A DNA stretch of 64,000 nucleotides from an uncultured Flavobacteriaceae bacterium. GTDB taxonomy: Bacteria > Bacteroidota > Bacteroidia > Flavobacteriales > Flavobacteriaceae. The position numbers and the translations under genes are program-made. The notes under the pieces are model-generated. The model ran no database searches, was not told the origin of the DNA, and saw only the letters and a program-made list of their open reading frames with translations. The DNA is taken from NCBI GenBank assembly GCA_963793275.1, contig CAWBZL010000002.1, positions 101,590-165,589 of the forward strand, in the 5' to 3' direction. The first letter of the stretch is position 1; each line of letters begins with the position of its first letter. Shown piece after piece: positions 38,809 to 49,001 of the stretch.

Positions 38809-41268
38809 TTATTTCATCAATTTTAACGTCATTCGTTTAATTCTATCCTTCAATTTTTCTGAAGAAAGCTTTTCCCGTAACCTGTCGGTAATAATGGGGA
38901 AACTAAAAGGCGTGGCTTCTTCGCATTGTTTCCAAACTATTTCTTGGCTGGCAATTCGCTCCAATGCCAATCGTAGTCTGCCTTCTTCCATTTCGTGTTC
39001 AAAAGTTTCTCTAAATGCCTGTTGGTATAACAAATTATCTGCTTCGTAATCTCTAAACACATCAAACAGCAATTGCGAATTGCTTTGCAGGTGCTTGGTT
39101 TTTATTTGTTTGCTAGGATAGCCCGTAAAAACCAAACCACTTATTACAGCAATATCTCTGAATTTTCTGCGGGCCAATTCAGTACTATTTAAACTTTTTT
39201 GAAGGTCGCTAAAAAGATAGTCAGTGCTAAATAAATTATTGTCCACCACATTCTGAATATCCAAAGGCTGATCGCTCAACAATTCAAAGCCATAATCATT
39301 GTATGCAAGGGAAAAAGTGATGGGAGAAAGCAAACTAATTCTGTACGCCAATAATCCGCCCATTGCCATATGTACAAACCGCCCTTCAAATGGATAAAAT
39401 AAATGGTGATAGCCTTCTCTGGTTTTAAAGGTTTCTATTAAAAACTCATTATTTCCAGGAACAATACTTTCTTTTTCCTGTCTGTCAAAAATATCTGAAA
39501 GAGCTTTTAACTCAGGCGTGTTTCTCTTATGATCTGCTTCAGACTGCAGTTCGTTTCGTAAAATTTCAGACATCTGAGAAGAAAGTGCCATGCGCCCTCC
39601 CATAAAACTTACTACATTTCTTGTGCGCTTGCTACTGCGTCTTACCTGAGCGGCCATATTTCGAACCCTAACCAGTTCCAACGTTCTTCCCGCAAATACA
39701 AATACATCTCCGGGTTTCATTTTTCCTATAAAAAATTCTTCGATGGTACCTATAAATCCGCCACTCACGTATTTTACCTGCACCATTGCATCACTTACTA
39801 TAGTGCCAATAGACAGACGGTGCATCATAGCTGTTTGGCGGCTGTCCACGTAAAACCTCCCATCGTCGTCTACTAAAACGCGTTTATATTCGTCATAAGC
39901 CTGCAAGCTCTGGCTTCCTAGTGTGATAAAATTGAGGCACCATTGCCATTGTTCTTCAGTAATTCCCTGAAAACAAAAGGTGTTTTTAATTTCCGGATAT
40001 ATGTCTTTGGGATAAAAACCATCACTTACAGCAAGGGTTACTAAATACTGAATTAACACATCAAAACTTAACAAATACGGGATGCGGTCTTCCATTACTT
40101 CCCCTTTTACAGCTTTTTTTAGTGCCGAAGCTTCTATCAACTCCATAGCGTGTGTTGGCAAAAAATGAATTACTGATGGTTCTCCGGGTCTGTGATTGCT
40201 ACGCCCTGCCCGTTGTAAAAACTTAGCAATTCCTTTAGGCCCACCAATTTGAATAATAGTTTCTACAGGCGCAAAGTCTACTCCCAGATCCAAACTTGAG
40301 GTAGCCACCACAGCTTTTAAACTTTCGTTTCGTATCGCTTGTTCTACCCACAATCTGGTTTCCTTATTGATGCTTCCGTGATGCATCGCTAATTCGCCAG
40401 CAAACTCCGGATACTTCTCTAAGATTTTCTGAAACCAAATTTCGCATTGACCGCGGGTATTGGTAAAGATGAGTGTAGTTTTACTGGATTTTATAATAGG
40501 TATAATGTCGTCCAGCAAGTGCAATCCCAAATGCCCGCGCCAGGGAAAGGTTTCCATTTTTTTAGGAATAATAGATTTTACAACTATTTTTTTCTTGATG
40601 TTTGCTTTTAATAAAATCGAATTTTCGCGTAACGCTTCATTCATTCCCAGTAACACATCCTGCGCTTGTTCTAAATTTCCAATAGTTGCCGAAATTCCCC
40701 AAATACGAAGCTGAGGCGAGATGGTTTTAAGTCTGGATAAGCCAAGTTCCATCTGCACACCACGTTTGCTGCCAAGGAGCTCGTGCCATTCATCTACCAC
40801 TACAGCTGTAAGGTTTCCGAAGATCTTTTTATAGCCTTTACTTGCCAACAACAACATTAAACTTTCTGGAGTTGTAATGAGTAAATCGGGCATGTTCCGT
40901 TTTTGCTTTGCCCGCTCACTTTGCGCAGTATCACCGGTTCTTATTCCCACAGTTAAGCCTGTTTCCAGTTCGTCTGCAAAACGTTGTGCCGCTTGTTTAA
41001 TTTCTACCGAAAGTGCCCGCAGCGGAGTAATCCAGATTGCTTTTAAACCTTTTGTGTGTTTAGTTTTATATTCCGGATGGTCTTTTATATACTGCAATAC
41101 AATAGGAACCCAAAGTGCATAGGTTTTCCCGCTTCCCGTAGGAGCATTTAGAAGCCCGTGTTTTCCTTGTAAAAATGCCTTCCAGGTTTTTTTCTGAAAT
41201 GGGAATGCCTTCCAGTTTTTAGACTCGAACCAGGTTTCGGCTATTTCTATTAATTGGGATTGATTCAT
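38809..41268 (-). CDS. lhr: ligase-associated DNA damage response DEXH-box helicase (Lhr-core type)
   Basis: PTGSGKT, DEWH, helicase C and an Lhr-type C-terminal domain. 1 nt from the ligase gene. Confidence 0.9.
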   Translation of the reverse strand: MNQSQLIEIAETWFESKNWKAFPFQKKTWKAFLQGKHGLLNAPTGSGKTYALWVPIVLQYIKDHPEYKTKHTKGLKAIWITPLRALSVEIKQAAQRFADELETGLTVGIRTGDTAQSERAKQKRNMPDLLITTPESLMLLLASKGYKKIFGNLTAVVVDEWHELLGSKRGVQMELGLSRLKTISPQLRIWGISATIGNLEQAQDVLLGMNEALRENSILLKANIKKKIVVKSIIPKKMETFPWRGHLGLHLLDDIIPIIKSSKTTLIFTNTRGQCEIWFQKILEKYPEFAGELAMHHGSINKETRLWVEQAIRNESLKAVVATSSLDLGVDFAPVETIIQIGGPKGIAKFLQRAGRSNHRPGEPSVIHFLPTHAMELIEASALKKAVKGEVMEDRIPYLLSFDVLIQYLVTLAVSDGFYPKDIYPEIKNTFCFQGITEEQWQWCLNFITLGSQSLQAYDEYKRVLVDDDGRFYVDSRQTAMMHRLSIGTIVSDAMVQVKYVSGGFIGTIEEFFIGKMKPGDVFVFAGRTLELVRVRNMAAQVRRSSKRTRNVVSFMGGRMALSSQMSEILRNELQSEADHKRNTPELKALSDIFDRQEKESIVPGNNEFLIETFKTREGYHHLFYPFEGRFVHMAMGGLLAYRISLLSPITFSLAYNDYGFELLSDQPLDIQNVVDNNLFSTDYLFSDLQKSLNSTELARRKFRDIAVISGLVFTGYPSKQIKTKHLQSNSQLLFDVFRDYEADNLLYQQAFRETFEHEMEEGRLRLALERIASQEIVWKQCEEATPFSFPIITDRLREKLSSEKLKDRIKRMTLKLMK

Positions 41269-41269
41269 G

Positions 41270-42919
41270 TTACTTAGGAATCAAAGCTCTCAGATCGTCC
41301 AGGGTATTTGCTTCTTCTATAGGTTTGTCTTTTCTCCATCGCAATATTCTTGGAAACCTGGTGGCAATACCGCTTTTATGTCGTTTACTTTCAGCAATGC
41401 CCTCAAAAGCTATTTCAAAAACGTGATGTGGTGTAACGCTTCTTACACGACCAAAGCGTTCCAGGGTGTTCTTTTTTATCCAGGCATCTACTTGTCTGAA
41501 TTCGGCATCTGTGAGACCCGAATATGCTTTTGCAAAAGTTACCAGTTCTCCTTCATCCCAAAGACCAAAGGTATAATCTGTATATAAATTTGCGCGCCTT
41601 CCGTGACCACGCATGGCGTAGGTGAGCACACCGTCTATGGTGAATGGGTCGGTTTTCCATTTCCACCAATCGCCTTTTTTTCGGCCAACTAAATAAGGAG
41701 AATCTTTGCGTTTCAGCATTAAACCTTCACTGCGTTTTTCTCGCGATAATTTTCTTTCGGCTGCGGCATCTTCCCAGGTTTTAAACGTCATTGTTTCGCT
41801 TAGATACAAGCCTATTTCGTCACAACTACATTCTGAAATTAAAGTGTCCAGAATTTCTCTTCTTTCTGAAAAGGGCTTTTGCCGGATATCTTTTCCTTTC
41901 CACTCCAATAGATCGTAAGCATTCAAAATCACCGGTGTTTTCTCCAGTAATTTTTTTGAAATATTCTTTCTGCCAATACGAGTTTGAAGGTCGTTAAAAT
42001 TTCCAATTTCATTATTTCCGAAGGGTAAAATTTCACCATCCAAAACGGTACCGTTAGGAATTTTTGAAAGGAAGCGTTGAAATTCAGGGTATTTATCGGT
42101 AACTAGTTCTTCGCCTCTGGACCAGACAAACACTTCGTCATTTCTGATAATTACCTGGCTCCTGATACCATCCCATTTATGTTCAAAACTCCAGCCTTTA
42201 ATATCGCCCAGATCTTCCTGAAAATTATCTTCTACAGCATACGCCAGATAAAACGGATAGGGTTTACTGAGGTAATCTTCCGGGTTTTCTTCTAAAATTA
42301 AATCCTGAAACGTGGTTGTATCTGCAGTCCAGTTACCCATTAGTTTATAGGCAAGTATGTCTTCATCTATTCCCGTAGATTTTGAGAGTGATCGGGTCAT
42401 TAATTTTTGACTCACCCCAATTCTAAAACCACCCGTAATAATTTTATTGAACACAAAACGCTCAAAATAGCTCATTCTCAACCAGTTTTCCTGAAGATAG
42501 CTTCTTTTTTCATCTTCTTCGAGTGTACGTAGCGTAATGATTTCGTTACAGTATTGAGACAGCGATTTTTCCCGAATTCCCAGCGCCTCTCCCGCTGAGA
42601 GGGGAATATTCTTTTCTTCCTTTTTTAGGGAGTGTTTAGGTGCGCTTGGAATTATTAAGGCAATAGTTTCGGCCAGATCACCCACTATATGATAGCTTTC
42701 TTCAAATAACCACTGTGGGATGCCACTAATTTCGGTTGCCCATAACCTTAGAAGTGTTGTGTTTACAGGGCGTTTTGGTCTTCTGTGTGAGAGTATGGCA
42801 ATGGTCCATAGTTTATCATCTTCACCCGCATTGTTAAAATATTCGGTGAGTGCAGCCACTTTCAAGGTGGTTTTATTGGTACTATCCAGAGTTTTTATGA
42901 GGGCAGCAAAATGTTTCAT
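41270..42919 (-). CDS. ATP-dependent DNA ligase
   Basis: Adenylation motif I (EHKWDGIR) and an OB domain. 4-nt overlap with the exonuclease gene. Confidence 0.9.
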   Translation of the reverse strand: MKHFAALIKTLDSTNKTTLKVAALTEYFNNAGEDDKLWTIAILSHRRPKRPVNTTLLRLWATEISGIPQWLFEESYHIVGDLAETIALIIPSAPKHSLKKEEKNIPLSAGEALGIREKSLSQYCNEIITLRTLEEDEKRSYLQENWLRMSYFERFVFNKIITGGFRIGVSQKLMTRSLSKSTGIDEDILAYKLMGNWTADTTTFQDLILEENPEDYLSKPYPFYLAYAVEDNFQEDLGDIKGWSFEHKWDGIRSQVIIRNDEVFVWSRGEELVTDKYPEFQRFLSKIPNGTVLDGEILPFGNNEIGNFNDLQTRIGRKNISKKLLEKTPVILNAYDLLEWKGKDIRQKPFSERREILDTLISECSCDEIGLYLSETMTFKTWEDAAAERKLSREKRSEGLMLKRKDSPYLVGRKKGDWWKWKTDPFTIDGVLTYAMRGHGRRANLYTDYTFGLWDEGELVTFAKAYSGLTDAEFRQVDAWIKKNTLERFGRVRSVTPHHVFEIAFEGIAESKRHKSGIATRFPRILRWRKDKPIEEANTLDDLRALIPK

Positions 42920-44016
42920 ACCGTATCGTCCTCCTCTTTTTTATTCACTTCGCTTCCTTCTTCTTCATATTGTGTTTTTTCGGTGCGTGCATCCAGGCCC
43001 ATTTCTTCACGCAGATATCTAGAGAAAATCTCGGTATAGCCGTGGGTGGCGATAACTTTTTCAGCACCTGTGTCTTTTACAGTTTGTAGCAATCCGTCCC
43101 AATCTGCGTGATCGCTTAGTACAAATCCGCGGTCTATGGCACGGCGCCTTCTTGCCCCTCTGAACGTCATCCATCCGCTCGCGCTGGCGGTTACATACGG
43201 TACCATCTTTCTGATCCAGGTTCCTCCGTGTGCACTGGGCGGGGCAAGTACTATATTGCCTAACAATTCTTCTTTTTTGGTCTCACGGGTAATGCGTGTA
43301 GTTTCGTGAAAGTTATAATTTTCTCTAAGCACTGCTGTCATATTTTCTATGGCACCGTGGGTGTAAATTTTGCCAATATCCGGATCCAGATGTTTCAGCA
43401 AACGTTGTGCTTTTCCCAGACTGTAGCCAAAAAGGATAGACGTTTTATTTTCTGCTCTGTTGGTGGCCCACCAGTTATTTATGTCTTTAAAAACTTCGGC
43501 CTGTGGGGTCCATTTAAATGCCGGGAGACCAAAGGTACATTCGGTAATAAAGGTGTTGCATTTTACCAGTTCAAAAGGTTCGGCAATGCCGTCATTTTCG
43601 GTTTTAAAATCGCCTGTAAAGACCCAGACTTCTCCTTTATACATTGCTCTTACCTGGCTACTTGCAACAATATGCCCAGCGGGATGAAGACTAAAGGTGA
43701 CTCCGTTTATGGTAAAAGTTTCTCCCCATTTCTTACCGCTTACGGTTATTTCTCCCAGGCGGTGCTTAATAATGGGTACATTTTTATGATGGGTAATGTA
43801 TTGTTTGTGTCCCCACCGACTGTGGTCTGCGTGGCCGTGGGTGATGATGCACTTATCTACAGGACGCCAGGCGTCTATATAAACATCTGCCTGCTTGCAG
43901 TAGATGCCTTTGTCGTTAAATTGAAGGAGTGGTGTTTTAGGCAATTTTTCAGAATTTTCTCGATAATTGAAGTTTGCATGGTCCGAGGTTTGCCTCGAAT
44001 TTAAATTTTTCGCCAT
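42916..44016 (-). CDS. ligase-associated DNA damage response exonuclease (MBL/beta-CASP fold)
   Basis: HGHADH metallo-beta-lactamase motif. First gene of the cluster. Confidence 0.85.
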   Translation of the reverse strand: MAKNLNSRQTSDHANFNYRENSEKLPKTPLLQFNDKGIYCKQADVYIDAWRPVDKCIITHGHADHSRWGHKQYITHHKNVPIIKHRLGEITVSGKKWGETFTINGVTFSLHPAGHIVASSQVRAMYKGEVWVFTGDFKTENDGIAEPFELVKCNTFITECTFGLPAFKWTPQAEVFKDINNWWATNRAENKTSILFGYSLGKAQRLLKHLDPDIGKIYTHGAIENMTAVLRENYNFHETTRITRETKKEELLGNIVLAPPSAHGGTWIRKMVPYVTASASGWMTFRGARRRRAIDRGFVLSDHADWDGLLQTVKDTGAEKVIATHGYTEIFSRYLREEMGLDARTEKTQYEEEGSEVNKKEEDDTV

Positions 44017-44208: not shown

Positions 44209-44634
44209 ATGTCATTTACAGATTTATTTGAGAGTGGAGAACACAAGAGAAACCTGGGTCATTTTGCATCTATTGCAAATATGGCATCGGTAGACGGAGC
44301 TTTGAATGCTGAAGAAGAAAAATTGTTACGCCGTTTTGCCAAGAAATTGGATATTGATGAAACCTTATATGAAGCGGTTTTAAAAAACCCGGGTAAATAT
44401 CCTATTAACCCTCCAAACGATGCAGACAGAAGGCTGGAGCGTATGCATGATCTATTTGAAATGATCTTTGCAGACCACGAGATAGACGATCACGAGCGTT
44501 TTTTAATTGAAAAATATGCTATTGGTTTAGGATATACTGCAGATTTAGCCTCAAAACTTATTAAAAGATCTATTGAAATATATAGCGGTGGTCTGGATAT
44601 GGAAGACTACCGATACCTTTTGAACAAAAAGTAA
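44209..44634 (+). CDS. TerB-family (tellurite resistance-like) protein
   Basis: Two helical DG-x5-E-x3-L type repeats (ASVDGALNAEEEKLL; ADHEIDDHERFLI). Confidence 0.6.
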   Translation: MSFTDLFESGEHKRNLGHFASIANMASVDGALNAEEEKLLRRFAKKLDIDETLYEAVLKNPGKYPINPPNDADRRLERMHDLFEMIFADHEIDDHERFLIEKYAIGLGYTADLASKLIKRSIEIYSGGLDMEDYRYLLNKK

Positions 44635-44653: not shown

Positions 44654-46153
44654 TTAAAAGAGCTTTTCGATACTGTCGAAGAGCTCTTTTTGCGTATAGG
44701 GTTTTGGTAAAAAAGCCGAAGCTCCCGAAGCCATCATTTGCTCTTGTTTCTGCAACATAGTGCTTCCACTGGCAACTAAAATAGGAATGTGTTGTATGTT
44801 GGAATCCTGCTTGCACTTTCTTATAAAGGCTATACCAGAGCTGTCTGCCAATGCTCCCTTACTAACAATAAGGTTGTAATTTCTTTTTCTCAACAATTCA
44901 AACGCCTGGTTTGCATCCTGCGCTATTTCTAAAATAATTCCTTTCTCATTGTTAAGGAAGGTTCGCATGAAGAGCATTTGGTTGGTTTCAATTTCTTCAA
45001 TAACCAGAATACGCTTGCTCATTAAAATTCCAGAACCTTTTGGCACTGTAGACCTTTTTTCTTTCCTTTTTCTCTCTTTAAAGGGTAGTAAGCAGGAAAA
45101 AGTAGTGCCGTCTTTATTGCTTGTAACCGAAATTTTCCCATCCAATACTGTCACTAGGTCTTTTACAATTTTAAGGCCTAAACCTTCACCAATGGGCTTA
45201 ATTGCATCCTCCTTTAACTGATAATAAGAATCGAAAACACGGTCAATTTCCGAAGTTGGGATTCCCTTTCCGGAGTCTGAAACTGAAATAGCAAGCATAC
45301 AATTTTCAGCACTGTTTTCTTTCAAAGTAACTCCTAATAGTATGGAGCCATGTGTTGTGTTTCTGAAGGCGTTTTCTAATAAATTAAATAGTATTTGATT
45401 TAACCGAAAAGGATCACCAATTAATTTTTTTGGAACTGTTTTTTCAATACTTGCTTCCAGCAAAATATTTTTTTTGCTGAACTTTAATTTATAATGTTGT
45501 TCCAGATTAGTTATAATGTGACCTAAATTAAAGGGAACCTGTTGCTTGGTAATAATTCCCCGCTCAATTTTTGAGATATCCAGCATATCGTCCATGAGTT
45601 GCTTTATTTGCAACCCGGTACGCTCCATTACCTTAAGTGTTTCGTTTTGATCGTAGGAAAGTTTTGTTTTTCTTAGCAACTCCATAAAACCCAGTAGGTT
45701 GTTTAACGGATTTCGGATTTCGTGATTAATATTCGCCAAAAAATTATTTTTGAAATTCTCTTTCGCCAGCAATAACTTCTTGTCAAAAGTTAATCTGTTT
45801 TTTGCAATAGCGGCTTCGTTTTTCTGCTGTACCAGTGGGTGTGCATCCCTGTAATGCGTTGTAAAGTCGAATAACAGCAAATAAATAGTATCCTCTCGTC
45901 GTACAATACTTATGTCTAAAATCTTACTAAAACCATCGCCGGAAAGATTTACACAGGGATAGGTAACATCTTGTGAAACTTCGGGAATTATGTTGATAAT
46001 GGTTTCAAAAAAAGGATGAAAACTAGTGATGTTTTCATTTTCAGTAAAAGGAAACAATACATCATCACTTTCAATCACGGCACCTTCTTTGGTTATTTCA
46101 ATTTGCTGAATCCTTGTGTTGAGAAACTCTTCTTTTAAGAGGGCAGTATTCAT
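44654..46153 (-). CDS. hybrid histidine kinase: novel N-terminal domain + HisKA + HATPase_c + degenerate receiver
   Basis: H box NINHEIRNPL, N box LLENAFRNT, G boxes SDSGKGI and GEGLGL. The receiver-like tail has K where the phospho-Asp is expected (LIVSK). Confidence 0.85.
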   Translation of the reverse strand: MNTALLKEEFLNTRIQQIEITKEGAVIESDDVLFPFTENENITSFHPFFETIINIIPEVSQDVTYPCVNLSGDGFSKILDISIVRREDTIYLLLFDFTTHYRDAHPLVQQKNEAAIAKNRLTFDKKLLLAKENFKNNFLANINHEIRNPLNNLLGFMELLRKTKLSYDQNETLKVMERTGLQIKQLMDDMLDISKIERGIITKQQVPFNLGHIITNLEQHYKLKFSKKNILLEASIEKTVPKKLIGDPFRLNQILFNLLENAFRNTTHGSILLGVTLKENSAENCMLAISVSDSGKGIPTSEIDRVFDSYYQLKEDAIKPIGEGLGLKIVKDLVTVLDGKISVTSNKDGTTFSCLLPFKERKRKEKRSTVPKGSGILMSKRILVIEEIETNQMLFMRTFLNNEKGIILEIAQDANQAFELLRKRNYNLIVSKGALADSSGIAFIRKCKQDSNIQHIPILVASGSTMLQKQEQMMASGASAFLPKPYTQKELFDSIEKLF

Positions 46154-46155
46154 AA

Positions 46156-46641
46156 TTACAATGTTTGTGAAGCTATTTCCCGAAAAGTCTCGGCTACATT
46201 TTCCCCTGTTTTGGCACTGGTAAAAAAGCAGTTGCTAAAATGATTTTCTTTAAAAAAATCTTTAGTAAACTCTTCTGAAAAAAGATCGGCTTTGTTTCCC
46301 ACAAAACACACTGGAATGGTTGGATATTTTGTAGACAGAAAAGCCATCTCTTCGGCAATGTTTTCGTAGGTTTCCGGGTGGGTAATGTCGAACACATACA
46401 TAAAGCCGTGGGTGCCCAATAAATAACTTTCTCTGGCTTTTGCTATGGAGGTATTTCCCTCGATATCCCAGATTATTAAGTTTATTTGTGTTGTATCCAG
46501 CGTTACTGTTTTTTTCTTTACGTGTACACCAACCGTTACCAGATAATCTTCGCTAAAAGCGCTCTCCACGAATTGGCGCACTAAACTGGTTTTTCCCACT
46601 CCAAAATGGCCAAGAATTACAATTTTTTTTGAATGGGTCAT
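46156..46641 (-). CDS. Ras-superfamily small GTPase (B)
   Basis: G1 GHFGVGKT, G3 WDIEG, G4 GNKAD, G5 SAK. Start placed at MTHSKK. Confidence 0.8.
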   Translation of the reverse strand: MTHSKKIVILGHFGVGKTSLVRQFVESAFSEDYLVTVGVHVKKKTVTLDTTQINLIIWDIEGNTSIAKARESYLLGTHGFMYVFDITHPETYENIAEEMAFLSTKYPTIPVCFVGNKADLFSEEFTKDFFKENHFSNCFFTSAKTGENVAETFREIASQTL

Positions 46642-46737
46642 GGTTGGGTTTTTTATGCACGCAAATATATCCGAAAACAAAAGATGCTGCTATTTAATTG
46701 AAAGAACTTAAGGTGCAGTTTGTCGAAAACTCACTCG

Positions 46738-47340
46738 CTAAGCATCGAAGTCAAAGTCCAATTCTTCTCGTATCTGGATTGCTTTAAGGTGAAAATTACC
46801 TATACTTTTTTCAATATCCTGTATAAGTTGCCGTTGCTCTGGTGCTATTTCACCTTGTTTTAGTTGCTCCACTTTTGAGATAATGTATTCCAGGGCGCCT
46901 ATCACTTTATCGTCAATACGCTCTCTCATAAAGCCTAAATAGGCCTGTTTTTCTTCTAAATGCTTTCTTCTTAAATTGTGTTCCTGTTCCTGTAATAGTG
47001 CTGTCTTTTTTTCCTGAGCCGCCTCGTGTAAATGTTCGTAATGCTGAGAATAGTCAAAAAGTAAAATGGCCAGAAAATCCGGTTCTTTTTTAATAGTAAT
47101 ATCACATATAGCTTCTTTACCGTGAATGTTTAGTTGTACACAAGGGAAAGCCAAGCTACTGCCAAAGATCTCTCTACTTTGCAATTCGATCTGTAAACTC
47201 TCAAAAAATGGATGAATTTCATATAAATTATCCTTCTTATTTAATAAAAAAATGGTGTCGCTACTTTCAAAAATCTCGCCCGTGGGTTTGGCGTGGATTT
47301 CCTGAATCTTCTTCGAAAAAAATAAATTCTGGTTTGTCAT
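46738..47340 (-). CDS. protein sharing the kinase N-terminal domain, plus a His-less DHp-like coiled coil
   Basis: About 30 percent identity by eye to residues 10-120 of the kinase (HPFFE, FPCV.L, LLFD...HY). 4-nt overlap with the upstream GTPase gene. Confidence 0.6.
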   Translation of the reverse strand: MTNQNLFFSKKIQEIHAKPTGEIFESSDTIFLLNKKDNLYEIHPFFESLQIELQSREIFGSSLAFPCVQLNIHGKEAICDITIKKEPDFLAILLFDYSQHYEHLHEAAQEKKTALLQEQEHNLRRKHLEEKQAYLGFMRERIDDKVIGALEYIISKVEQLKQGEIAPEQRQLIQDIEKSIGNFHLKAIQIREELDFDFDA

Positions 47341-47828
47341 TTTGTTAGTTTTTTTGCTAAGTCTGTAAATACTTCTTGCACGCCCTCTCCCGTTTTGGCA
47401 CTTACAAAGCTGTCTGCTTCTATGTCTTTTTTAAGGAGGTAGTCTATGACGTGTTTGGGGTTTTCTAAGTCACTTTTGTTACCAATTAATTTTAAACTTA
47501 CATGCTCGTATTTTTCTGAAATAAAAGCAATTTCTTTTTCAAGGTTCTCGTACGTAACGGGTCTGGTAATATCAAAAACATATATAAATCCTTCTGAGCC
47601 TAGTAGGTAGGATGGTCGTGCTTTGTCAATAGAAGAAAATCCTTCAAGGTCCCAGATTATCATAGATATTTGTTTTCCATTTGGCAGGTCCAAGACCTTT
47701 TTCTTTATCTGTACGCCCAGTGTGGTTTTATAGTCGTGTTCAAAAACATCTTCCAGCAGCCTTCGCATTAACGAAGTTTTTCCAACCCCAAACTGCCCCA
47801 TGAGCACTATTTTCTTTGAAAGATTCAT
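47337..47828 (-). CDS. Ras-superfamily small GTPase (A)
   Basis: G1 GQFGVGKT, G2 Thr (YKTTLG), G3 WDLEG, G4 GNKSD, G5 SAKTG. Confidence 0.85.
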   Translation of the reverse strand: MNLSKKIVLMGQFGVGKTSLMRRLLEDVFEHDYKTTLGVQIKKKVLDLPNGKQISMIIWDLEGFSSIDKARPSYLLGSEGFIYVFDITRPVTYENLEKEIAFISEKYEHVSLKLIGNKSDLENPKHVIDYLLKKDIEADSFVSAKTGEGVQEVFTDLAKKLTK

Positions 47829-48637
47829 TTGTTAAAGAATTTTTTCAAAAACAAATCGGTTTCTTCTCTGGAAAGATGCGAAACACCAGAGGACATTTTT
47901 TTTGAAAGTTTAAATAATTTATTTTCTAATTGGCTCTCAAAAGAGCGCGTGTAATTTCCTGAAACTACCACAGCAATATAAAAACTATGGAAGTTCTGAA
48001 TATGAATGGTGTACAACTCATATTCAATATTTTCTAAATTTTGAGTACCCCCTTTAAAAGCATCTTCAACAAAACTCTTTATAGCAGTTAGCATCCCGGA
48101 AATCATGTCTTTATCTACCGTTTCGGTTTTACTGTGATTCCCTAAGAGAATGCCAGATCCCTTTTGGATGAGAAATACCTCGCTAATTACAGGCGGATTC
48201 GTTTCTGTAAGTATAAGATCGCTTTCCTTAACACCCGTAAATCGTGCACGTACTTTTCGCTTTAAACTTATAAGAGAGAACGTATTGTTCACCTTTTTGT
48301 TTACTGTTTCGGAGAGTACTTTTATTTCATTTTGTACGTAGCGTTTAATCATTTTACCCATAATTGGGTATAGCGCTTCTACCACGGCATCCCGAGAATT
48401 TGCGATTTCAGTCTTTAATGTTTTTGTTATTGTTGGTCCTAATGTTACGGGTATTTCGGCTATAAATTCATTCAGTTTTTCCTGAATGATGGGATCTATT
48501 TTTTCTGAAAGTTTAGCACGTTGCTCAATTGTTTGGGTAATTACATCGAGGCGTTGGTTTACAGCACTGGCAATTTCCCTGTCGTCTACCAACAGGATAT
48601 CACGTAGCAGCTGCAATTTATCCTCTTCTTTCACCAT
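47825..48637 (-). CDS. coiled-coil protein with Roadblock/LC7-like C-terminal region (pattern-level call)
   Basis: VFLIQKGSGILLG...DMISGMLTAIKSFVEDAF...YTIHIQ...FYIAVVVSG follows the strand-helix-strand-strand layout of MglB/Roadblock proteins. 4-nt overlap with GTPase A. Confidence 0.5.
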   Translation of the reverse strand: MVKEEDKLQLLRDILLVDDREIASAVNQRLDVITQTIEQRAKLSEKIDPIIQEKLNEFIAEIPVTLGPTITKTLKTEIANSRDAVVEALYPIMGKMIKRYVQNEIKVLSETVNKKVNNTFSLISLKRKVRARFTGVKESDLILTETNPPVISEVFLIQKGSGILLGNHSKTETVDKDMISGMLTAIKSFVEDAFKGGTQNLENIEYELYTIHIQNFHSFYIAVVVSGNYTRSFESQLENKLFKLSKKMSSGVSHLSREETDLFLKKFFNK

Positions 48638-48650
48638 GTGCTAACACTTT

Positions 48651-49001
48651 TTATGAACTAATCTTCTCCCCCAGATTAATTAGTAGTTTCCCCAGTTGTT
48701 TACGATCTACTTTGCTCTCGGCTAATGCTTCGGTTTTTGAGGTCATTGCATCTTCCAGGTCTGTAATTCTAATATTTACGTCTGTACTTAACGAATCTAT
48801 AGATTGCATTAACTCATTTCTTACTTCATCTATATAATTTTCAAGATGTGCTTTTTGAGTATCTACTGCTTGTTTGAGGGTGTTAAACTCGCTATCTATT
48901 TTTTCAATATTCTCCCCAAAAATGAGGTTTTTGATAGCTTCAATTTTCGAATTGGAATCTAAAGAAGGTGGAGCTTCTAAGGGTGGGTTTTTTTTTGCCA
49001 T
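48651..49001 (-). CDS. small coiled-coil protein
   Basis: Heptad-rich 116-aa ORF at the head of the GTPase operon. Confidence 0.5.
   Translation of the reverse strand: MAKKNPPLEAPPSLDSNSKIEAIKNLIFGENIEKIDSEFNTLKQAVDTQKAHLENYIDEVRNELMQSIDSLSTDVNIRITDLEDAMTSKTEALAESKVDRKQLGKLLINLGEKISS

Follow-up and report, generated by a model that had tools for sequence, protein, structure and literature searches.

A tandemly duplicated Group 1 Rup GTPase cassette in Flavobacteriaceae, with a PAS-like domain as candidate reader of GTPase state

Described GTPase systems and the composition of the locus

Wuichet and Søgaard-Andersen (2014; Genome Biol Evol 7:57; PMC4316618) divided prokaryotic small Ras-like GTPases into MglA proteins, whose genes are coupled to MglB/Roadblock genes, and Rup proteins, whose genes are not. 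Group 1 Rup (Rup1), a bacterial clade that resembles and groups with Rab/Ras/Rho/Ran GTPases of eukaryotes, lacks the Gln of the G3 motif, and its genes lie in a four-gene neighbourhood that consists of a coiled-coil protein (DUFY), a protein with a conserved domain called unknown and often then a membrane helix and OmpA (DUFX), the Rup GTPase, and either a histidine kinase or a GGDEF/EAL protein (PMC4316618). The text of that paper places an invariant Gln in the N-terminal region of the output protein and speculates that it acts in trans; it also proposes that the Rup1 system works 'analogously to the conservon', whose GTPase it treats as output (PMC4316618). Its table S2 gives the order DUFY>DUFX>Rup for six Flavobacteriia, with Rup proteins of 161-165 amino acids (aa) and DUFX without OmpA (PMC4316618). 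Here we describe such a locus, six genes at positions 44654-49001, in a stretch of 64,000 nucleotides (nt) from an uncultured Flavobacteriaceae bacterium (assembly GCA_963793275.1, contig CAWBZL010000002.1, positions 101,590 to 165,589 of the forward strand), the whole of which is called the window below.

By gene order, GTPase motifs and partner homology, rather than by placement in a tree, the locus is a Group 1 Rup cassette, and its DUFY>DUFX>Rup order agrees with the six Flavobacteriia rows of table S2. We propose, with a probability of roughly 0.55, that in this tandemly duplicated Rup1 cassette a PAS domain reads the state of the GTPase and thereby gates a histidine kinase. New with respect to the 2014 description are the tandem duplication, the partly degenerate architecture, and two fold assignments, PAS for the domain shared by the two output proteins (the X domain) and longin/Roadblock for DUFX, in a cassette whose two domains had been left as unknown in 2014. 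An earlier sequence-only reading of the window did not recognize these genes as a characterized system; the cassette had in fact been described computationally in 2014 (PMC4316618), but the remark holds for the bench, as no experimental study was found. Neither experimental or structural work on Rup1, DUFX or DUFY nor any experimentally characterized Rup-family GTPase was found in the open-access literature, and later papers use 'Rup1' solely as a phylogenetic label. The features of the cassette are given below, with the basis of each assignment in brackets.

48651..49001, minus strand: DUFY, 116 aa, first gene of the cassette (list of open reading frames)
47825..48637, minus strand: DUFX, 270 aa, helical N-terminus and C-terminal domain of predicted longin/Roadblock fold (list of open reading frames)
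47894..48226, minus strand: longin/Roadblock-like domain of DUFX, residues ~138-248 (model, alpha-beta-beta-alpha-beta-beta-beta-alpha)
47337..47828, minus strand: Rup GTPase A, 163 aa, Rab/Ras-like (Pfam Ras)
46738..47340, minus strand: X200, 200 aa, kinase-less paralogue of the histidine kinase (BLASTP, AlphaFold2 (AF2) model)
47050-47310, minus strand: PAS-like X domain of X200, residues ~11-97 (AF2 model, Foldseek)
46156..46641, minus strand: Rup GTPase B, 161 aa from the ATG at 46641, Rab/Ras-like (Pfam Ras)
44654..46153, minus strand: soluble hybrid histidine kinase, 499 aa (Pfam HisKA, HATPase_c, Response_reg)
45818-46153, minus strand: PAS-like X domain of the kinase, residues 1-112 (homology to X200)

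The six open reading frames (ORFs) of 44654-49001 are co-directional on the minus strand, and the coordinates and junctions given by the sequence-only reading were confirmed from the ORFs and the sequence. GTPase A overlaps both of its neighbours, through ATGA overlaps of 4 nt at 47825-47828 and 47337-47340, and 2 nt separate the stop codon of GTPase B (46156-46158) from the kinase ATG (46153). The spacing is 13 nt between the 116-aa and 270-aa genes and 96 nt ahead of GTPase B, for which the mechanical ORF list runs to a TTG at 46680 and orthologue alignments begin at the ATG at 46641. Together with the conserved synteny described below, these junctions bear out the claim of a tightly packed gene unit. 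A membrane segment was predicted in none of the six proteins, the maximum Kyte-Doolittle hydropathy of DUFY over 19 residues being 0.27. A scan for sigma-70 promoters and intrinsic terminators gave a site count not above that of shuffled sequence; it leaves other promoter types uncovered and is uninformative about the operon boundaries.

With Group 1 Rup at large the locus has in common a single-domain GTPase of 161-165 aa without the G3 Gln, the order DUFY > DUFX > Rup, and a signalling output next in line. It differs in that the Rup-output pair is duplicated, one output consists of a PAS domain and a His-less DHp, and the kinase carries a pseudo-receiver. The actinobacterial conservon is likewise an operon of a small Ras-superfamily GTPase, a Roadblock-superfamily protein and a histidine kinase, its members being CvnA (histidine kinase), CvnB (Roadblock), CvnC (DUF742) and CvnD (GTPase). 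However, CvnD belongs to Group 2 of the MglA family, whereas the GTPases here are of the Rup type; CvnA is a membrane-bound HAMP kinase with a C-terminal LPxR, whereas the kinase here is soluble, begins with a PAS-like domain and ends in a receiver; and neither DUF742 nor Robl_LC7 has a Pfam match at the locus, where the Roadblock-like domain is not detectable by sequence. Membership of the conservon family was rejected on these three grounds; like the MglA/MglB module, the conservon is an analogue in function.

In the MglA/MglB pair of Myxococcus and Thermus, MglA keeps a catalytic Gln of its own together with an intrinsic Arg finger, both positioned by MglB (Miertzschke 2011, via PMC4316618), whereas the Gln is missing here. 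MglB consists of little more than a Robl_LC7 domain and stands alone, unlike DUFX, which begins with a long helical part and finds its best scores among longin domains, and in the classic module a kinase is neither fused nor adjacent, whereas here it adjoins the GTPase. Membership was rejected because the GTPases are of the Rup type and the locus holds no sequence-recognizable MglB (Robl_LC7) homologue. A polarity or gliding-motility switch that works like MglA/MglB would nevertheless suit small GTPases that adjoin a Roadblock-superfamily protein in a flavobacterium, a group known for gliding. We regard such a switch as very improbable, given that the GTPases are Rab/Ras-like, keep the DxxG Asp, lack a cis-Gln and have Rabs rather than MglA as their best solved relatives, and that Rup is by definition a clade without recognizable MglB coupling (PMC4316618). 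Robl_LC7 has no Pfam match, the neighbouring genes (FBPase, TerB-like, DNA repair) are not motility genes, and the cassette is also found in Nostoc with kinase outputs. A reading of the locus as a defence system was also rejected, because a PADLOC scan yielded only P-loop and coiled-coil noise.

GTPases, X domain and kinase

Both GTPases are single-domain members of the Ras superfamily (Pfam Ras, E 1e-28 for GTPase A and 4e-33 for GTPase B) with eukaryote-like G1-G5 motifs, an intact DxxG Asp and no G3 Gln; they are 51% identical to each other. GTPase A has the G1 motif GQFGVGKT, switch-I Thr36, G3 DLEGF, G4 NKSD and G5 SAK, and GTPase B has GHFGVGKT, Thr36, DIEGN, NKAD and SAK at the same positions. 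In alignment to Sec4 and Rab1, the best solved relatives of GTPase A in the PDB (E 3e-22), Phe64 of GTPase A (nt 47637-47639) stands opposite the catalytic Gln (WDLEGF against WDTAGQ), and in GTPase B this position is taken by Asn63 (nt 46453-46455). The motif scan and the alignment thus agree with the sequence-only reading, which had found complete G1, G4 and G5 motifs and no Gln after DxxG. GTPase B is 35-37% identical to a Nostoc 'Rab family GTPase' (WDIEGS) encoded in an equivalent cassette. The analogy to MglA/MglB that had been drawn for hydrolysis is imprecise, as MglA reportedly keeps its own Gln and the GTPases here are Rab/Ras-like Rup proteins, not MglA. Catalysis in trans is implied for both GTPases because each lacks the cis-Gln. 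GTPase-activating proteins (GAPs) of the TBC type provide catalytic residues in trans. RapGAP likewise supplies the catalytic residue in trans (Scrima 2008, cited in PMC4316618).

X200 and the N-terminal part of the kinase are homologous (BLASTP E 2e-22, 25% identity, residues 7-195). Neither X200 nor kinase residues 1-130 had a match in Pfam or NCBIfam at E <= 0.1, PAS models included, and a profile of the X domain had no match among all PDB chain sequences. The AF2 model of X200 has a mean predicted local distance difference test score (pLDDT) of 81.8, rising to 86-93 in the PAS core, with strands at residues 12-17, 22-26, 62-72, 75-85 and 90-96, helices within 39-54, and a 64-residue helix (98-161) followed by a return helix. 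This predicted structure has the five-stranded antiparallel sheet, the short helices between strands 2 and 3 and the linker helix of the PAS fold. The top Foldseek matches of the model are the PAS-linker-DHp segments of the LOV histidine kinases YF1 (4gcz) and SB2F1, over 206-226 columns, and the PAS domains of FixL, HIF/ARNT and phytochromes were also matched, the LOV and other PAS matches having a probability of 1.00. On the AF2 model and these matches to PAS kinases, X is a predicted divergent PAS domain; the fold assignments of both X and DUFX rest on predicted structures because profile searches against PDB chains were negative. The 'novel domain' of the sequence-only reading is therefore new as a sequence family, but not in its predicted fold.

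Compared with PAS histidine kinases such as FixL and the engineered YF1 (4gcz), the X200 model superposes on the PAS domain, linker helix and DHp of YF1/SB2F1 over more than 200 columns. It differs in that X has no sequence match to Pfam PAS or to a PDB chain, and in that a GTPase protein is proposed as what it senses, in place of light, haem or a small ligand. The X domain ends in a D-x-T-x-H-Y motif, which resembles the 'DIT' motif that couples PAS domains to coiled-coil linkers. Among 128 representatives, conservation is highest at Asp80 (98%), Tyr101 (97%), Gln13 (95%), Gly21 (94%) and Gln109 (92%), with Asp96-x-Thr/Ser98 at 84% and 73% and Cys67 at 73%; His43 and His100 are kept within the Marinirhabdus-Ulvibacter group and fall below 70% across the wider family.

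A hidden Markov model search of 1.84 billion representative proteins returned 205 members of the X family, and the domain is N-terminal in all of them. The enzymes fused to it are HisKA-HATPase, HisKA-HATPase-REC, HisKA-HATPase-REC-HPt, a SpoIIE/PP2C phosphatase, or degenerate versions of these, as read by a Pfam scan of ten X-domain matches; no GGDEF/EAL fusion was found among those ten, and no match had a length class that suggested one. An N-terminal domain that stays constant while the C-terminal enzymes swap is the usual signature of an input domain. A gene-neighbourhood survey found a Rup gene directly upstream in 29/29 X-output genes with readable upstream sequence, and on the contigs of five distant X members a Ras-family gene lies immediately upstream in each, usually with genes for proteins of 113-123 aa and 266-284 aa as well. 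The pairing of X with a preceding GTPase gene, first noticed in the window, is hence conserved far beyond the genus. The earlier reading would have been undermined by a sensor fold that had no linkage to GTPases in other genomes; the predicted fold is indeed that of a sensor, but the linkage holds.

The predicted PAS fold also allows for X being an ordinary ligand- or cofactor-sensing PAS domain, with the GTPases in an accessory role (localization or scaffold) and their nucleotide state unread by the kinase. Cys67, and in the Marinirhabdus-Ulvibacter group His43 and His100, could bind a cofactor, but the conservation of the two His residues below 70% in the wider family speaks against a general role of this kind. 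The strict adjacency in all 29 cases, often with overlapping stop and start codons, would be unusual for a mere accessory, and X-only and kinase-dead copies are kept beside their own GTPase. We consider this explanation unlikely.

Stand-alone, PAS-only X ORFs of ~100-130 aa without a GTPase of their own were also seen, in four loci (L015, L021, L023 and L036). The one in Ulvibacter antarcticus (L015 6776-7069) is an extra copy, and those at L021 5986-6378, L023 6001-6351 and L036 6998-7366 stand in for the pair formed by GTPase A and the 200-aa gene. Many X-only proteins of 105-130 aa occur in the representative protein library. One predicted protein, P0235 (536 aa), matches X profile positions 30-71 and consists of about nine near-identical tandem repeats of about 50 residues; most likely it stems from repetitive DNA translated in error and is not a true member of the X family.

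The kinase has the Pfam domains HisKA (residues 135-199), HATPase_c (246-359) and Response_reg (382-495) behind its X domain, and its orthologues conserve the phospho-acceptor His144 (nt 45722-45724) as well as the N, G1 and G2 boxes. In the receiver, Lys432 (nt 44858-44860) replaces the phospho-acceptor Asp, so that this domain is a pseudo-receiver; the X-HisKA-HATPase-receiver architecture read from the sequence is right in its domains, with the correction that the receiver has lost its acceptor Asp. X200 extends beyond its X domain into a hairpin (residues 98-191) that is colinear with the kinase DHp (hhalign E 7.7e-4). It has no ATPase domain, and Asp144 stands at the phospho-His position, which in X200 orthologues is D, T, N, G, S, A or H. 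X200 is thus a kinase remnant made up of a PAS domain and a His-less DHp hairpin; it had been described as an 'X-domain protein', which is correct as to the domain shared with the kinase but leaves out the DHp. Its homologues number only 83, all from Flavobacteriaceae or metagenome sequences.

In two cases the X-kinase bears REC and HPt domains and is followed by a LytTR response regulator (L025 7943-8635; L030 3633-4208). The cassette order of L030 is permuted to Rup > X-kinase > DUFY > DUFX > LytTR regulator. In Nostoc flagelliforme plasmid pNFSY07 the Rup-linked kinase is annotated as two overlapping ORFs (L033 8228-10608), a 'hypothetical' protein of 176 aa and an 'ATP-binding protein' of 622 aa; as the kinase of Nostoc sp. 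UHCC 0926 is a single ORF of 822 aa (L034 8275-10743), the split is probably a frameshift or an annotation artefact. Both Nostoc cassettes (L033, L034) lie on large plasmids.

DUFX, DUFY and the direction of the signal

DUFX (270 aa) has no match in Pfam or NCBIfam. Its C-terminal domain has the Longin/Roadblock topology in the predicted structure, a ~110-residue alpha/beta sandwich of the order beta-beta-alpha-beta-beta-beta-alpha. All of its top 50 Foldseek matches (50/50) fall in the Roadblock/longin group, with the best scores against longin domains, and they include Rag C-terminal domains, LAMTOR, Sec22b, dynein LC7, Asgard Roadblock, MglC and MglB. The suggestion that the 270-aa protein is Roadblock-like therefore holds at the level of a superfamily fold in the predicted model. 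The pairing of a Rab-like GTPase with a neighbouring protein of predicted longin/Roadblock fold recalls the eukaryotic regulation of Rab and Rag GTPases by Mon1-Ccz1, TRAPP, Ragulator, FLCN and GATOR1, although DUFX has no sequence homology to any of these and the locus has no TBC or RapGAP domain.

Homologues of DUFX number 1440, many of them named 'cell envelope biogenesis protein OmpA'. A Nostoc 'OmpA family protein' is 33-35% identical to DUFX in its cytoplasmic part (tblastn E 8e-28 to 8e-31; BLASTP E 5e-37), and the gene for it lies between a coiled-coil-type ORF and the 'Rab family GTPase' (WDIEGS), with a hybrid kinase following. The Nostoc DUFX has a membrane helix and a C-terminal region annotated as OmpA family, whereas the DUFX of the window is without the membrane helix and the OmpA domain of its homologues in other phyla. 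NCBI gives the name OmpA to the 270-aa DUFX and its orthologues (P0085, P0098, P0127 and others) despite the absence of either feature, a label apparently inherited from homologues in other phyla that are fused to OmpA.

DUFY is a helical protein of putative coiled-coil type, with only sub-threshold matches to coiled-coil-type Pfam families. Each of the 23 loci syntenic in Flavobacteriaceae has an orthologue at the same position, as do the distant L026, L030 and L031. DUFY and DUFX are the slowest-evolving parts of the cassette, with a mean p-distance of 0.26 compared with 0.36-0.53 for the others. DUFY and DUFX start alike, each with a short helical motif at the N-terminus (for example IKNLIFGEN and LLRDILLVDD in the window), with the counterparts IRDIILGTQ and LREILVGYE in N. 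flagelliforme (L033 4576-7635). As far as sequence goes, this common opening suggests a shared pairing element.

These properties of DUFX and DUFY bear on an alternative in which the signal runs in reverse: the PAS-kinase would act as a GAP or regulator that gives a Gln in trans, DUFX and DUFY would be the effectors, and the GTPase would be the output, as proposed for the conservon. In its favour, the GTPases lack a cis-Gln and X has two highly conserved Gln residues, and both the Gln in trans and the conservon GTPase as output are already found in the 2014 paper (PMC4316618). The slow evolution of DUFX and DUFY would also fit, as would the membrane helix and OmpA-annotated C-terminus of cyanobacterial DUFX, which amount to envelope anchoring in other phyla. 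On the other side, the enzyme behind X changes between kinase, kinase-REC-HPt and PP2C, with X and the GTPase unchanged, which fits X as an input, and the LytTR regulators that follow HPt-bearing versions point to transcription as the output that lies downstream of the kinase. Proteins of the longin/Roadblock group, among them MglB, Ragulator, Mon1-Ccz1 and TRAPP, usually regulate GTPases and are not typically effectors. We therefore hold the reverse direction to be possible yet doubtful; it is also compatible with a PAS domain that reads GTPase state, as effectors can also be GAPs.

Duplication history, proposed signal route and neighbouring genes

A conservation scan that took one genome for each GTDB species yielded 24 loci in Flavobacteriaceae. 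The identical six-gene order, FBPase > 116 > 270 > GTPase A > 200 > GTPase B > kinase, followed downstream by a TerB-like gene in convergent orientation, was present in 20 GTDB species, among them species of Marinirhabdus, Aureisphaera, Ulvibacter and Cochleicola and an Aureitalea metagenome-assembled genome (MAG); Marinirhabdus gelatinilytica is close, with 66-92% amino-acid identity across the region. Since the same order recurs in 20 species, the arrangement is not a product of chance. At the same FBPase/TerB site, a four-gene form (116 > 270 > GTPase > kinase) occurs in Gilvibacter sediminis (L035) and strain RhTr2 (L022), and Aureitalea sp. L0-47 (L023), one MAG (L021) and Patiriisocius (L036) have a five-gene form, in which an X-only ORF of 116-130 aa takes the place of GTPase A and the 200-aa gene. 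In a neighbour-joining tree of the loci, GTPases A and B form two clades, each of which spans the same genomes. From the occurrence of four-, five- and six-gene forms at one site, and of A and B clades over the same genomes, the six-gene form is read as a lineage-specific tandem duplication of the GTPase-kinase pair in an older four-gene cassette, and the duplicated GTPase-X module claimed from the window is borne out by these loci and the GTPase tree. In one Ulvibacter MAG (L020 5519-5979) the GTPase A orthologue matches as two overlapping pieces, which may reflect a frameshift, a pseudogene or an assembly error.

The receiver of the kinase follows the same division. It has Lys at the acceptor position in every six-gene and five-gene locus (L001-L021, L023, L036), and keeps the Asp in the four-gene loci (L022, L035), in distant relatives (L024, L025, L030) and in Nostoc (L034); the acceptor is thus lost where an extra X-domain gene is present.

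The analysis establishes which genes and motifs are present, how they are conserved, the homology of the domains, their predicted folds and the history of duplication; every protein contact, and the direction of the signal, in the following scheme is inferred. DUFX, probably with DUFY, would set the nucleotide state of the GTPase as a platform for guanine nucleotide exchange factor (GEF) and/or GAP activity, by analogy with the longin/Roadblock proteins that serve Rab, Rag and MglA. In the kinase, the PAS-like domain would bind the GTPase depending on that state and relay it to the DHp through the linker helix (D-x-T-x-H-Y / Q-x-x-N-E), so as to switch autophosphorylation, and it may aid GTP hydrolysis with one of its two conserved Gln residues. 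Since the receiver fused to it (Lys432) cannot take up phosphate, the kinase would hand this on to an unlinked response regulator. The upstream duplicate has lost its ATPase domain and phospho-His, leaving the PAS domain and the dimerization hairpin, and X200 would most likely serve as a second input controlled by GTPase A or as a decoy, for example as a heterodimer partner or competitor of the intact kinase.

Several results weigh against this scheme. A tblastn search across the 64-kb window found no response regulator, and no further copies of Rup or X, so the partner that the kinase would need is missing there. A mirror-tree test (partial correlation of pairwise distances, 17 genomes) gave no specific co-evolution of GTPase A with X200 or of GTPase B with the kinase that would set these pairs apart from the other combinations. 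PAS domains often bind small ligands, and X could accordingly sense an input other than a GTPase. The model of DUFX has a low-confidence helical N-terminus and a mean pLDDT of 57.9, and its C-terminal domain reaches 60-84, only moderate; neither a Pfam scan nor a DUFX profile run against all PDB chains tied its sequence to the Roadblock or longin families. In Nostoc, the N-terminal domain of the kinase aligns weakly with a profile of 128 X sequences (hhalign E 1e-4 to 3.5e-4, probability 29-37%), values that are no more than suggestive of homology, and with a shallower X profile the match is not significant (hhalign E 0.47). The weak alignment keeps Asp80, Asp96-x-Thr and Gln109-x-x-Asn-Glu but pairs Gln13 with a Glu, so that of the two Gln residues only Gln109 is shared. 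The published invariant Gln may correspond to either Gln13 (95%) or Gln109 (92%), and for a place inside the published Rup1 clade the support is indirect, from the 35-37% identity to the Nostoc GTPase and the neighbour-joining tree of the loci.

A more far-reaching version of the proposal, which we put forward tentatively, would make DUFX a true longin/Roadblock GEF or GAP of Rup1 and the PAS-like domain a reader that wires the GTPase to two-component, PP2C and cyclic di-GMP signalling, with the kinase gated by two GTPases in the lineage studied here. In that version the gating would run through the second GTPase and the kinase-dead PAS-DHp paralogue, for example in a kinase/pseudokinase heterodimer. 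If it is true, a pairing typical of eukaryotic Rab and Rag GTPases exists in bacteria for the clade closest to Rab/Ras/Rho/Ran.

The locus offers testable parts: two soluble GTPases without a cis-Gln, a soluble partner of predicted longin/Roadblock fold without a membrane anchor, a PAS-like domain as the obvious candidate reader of GTPase state, X200 as a naturally 'dissected' PAS and DHp paralogue, and a pseudo-receiver. Should the PAS domain prove to read GTPase state, the cassette would show how a Ras-like switch plugs into bacterial two-component signalling, and the regulatory pairing of GTPases with longin/Roadblock proteins would extend to bacterial relatives of Rab and Ras. Should the proposed wiring be wrong, the locus would still be a classified member of a widespread cassette, and the DUFX genes would still be misnamed 'OmpA' in public annotation.

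The convergent TerB-like gene (141 aa, 44209-44634, plus strand) ends 19 nt from the kinase stop codon, and its position is kept in all syntenic Flavobacteriaceae loci with readable downstream sequence, whether of the four-, five- or six-gene form. Directly downstream of the cassette region, a three-gene set on the minus strand (38809-44016), syntenic in related genomes, encodes an Lhr-type DEAD/DEAH helicase (819 aa), an ATP-dependent DNA ligase (549 aa), the gene for which has a 4-nt overlap with the next, and a metallo-beta-lactamase-fold protein (366 aa). Together the three genes resemble a DNA-repair operon of the ligase-associated kind.

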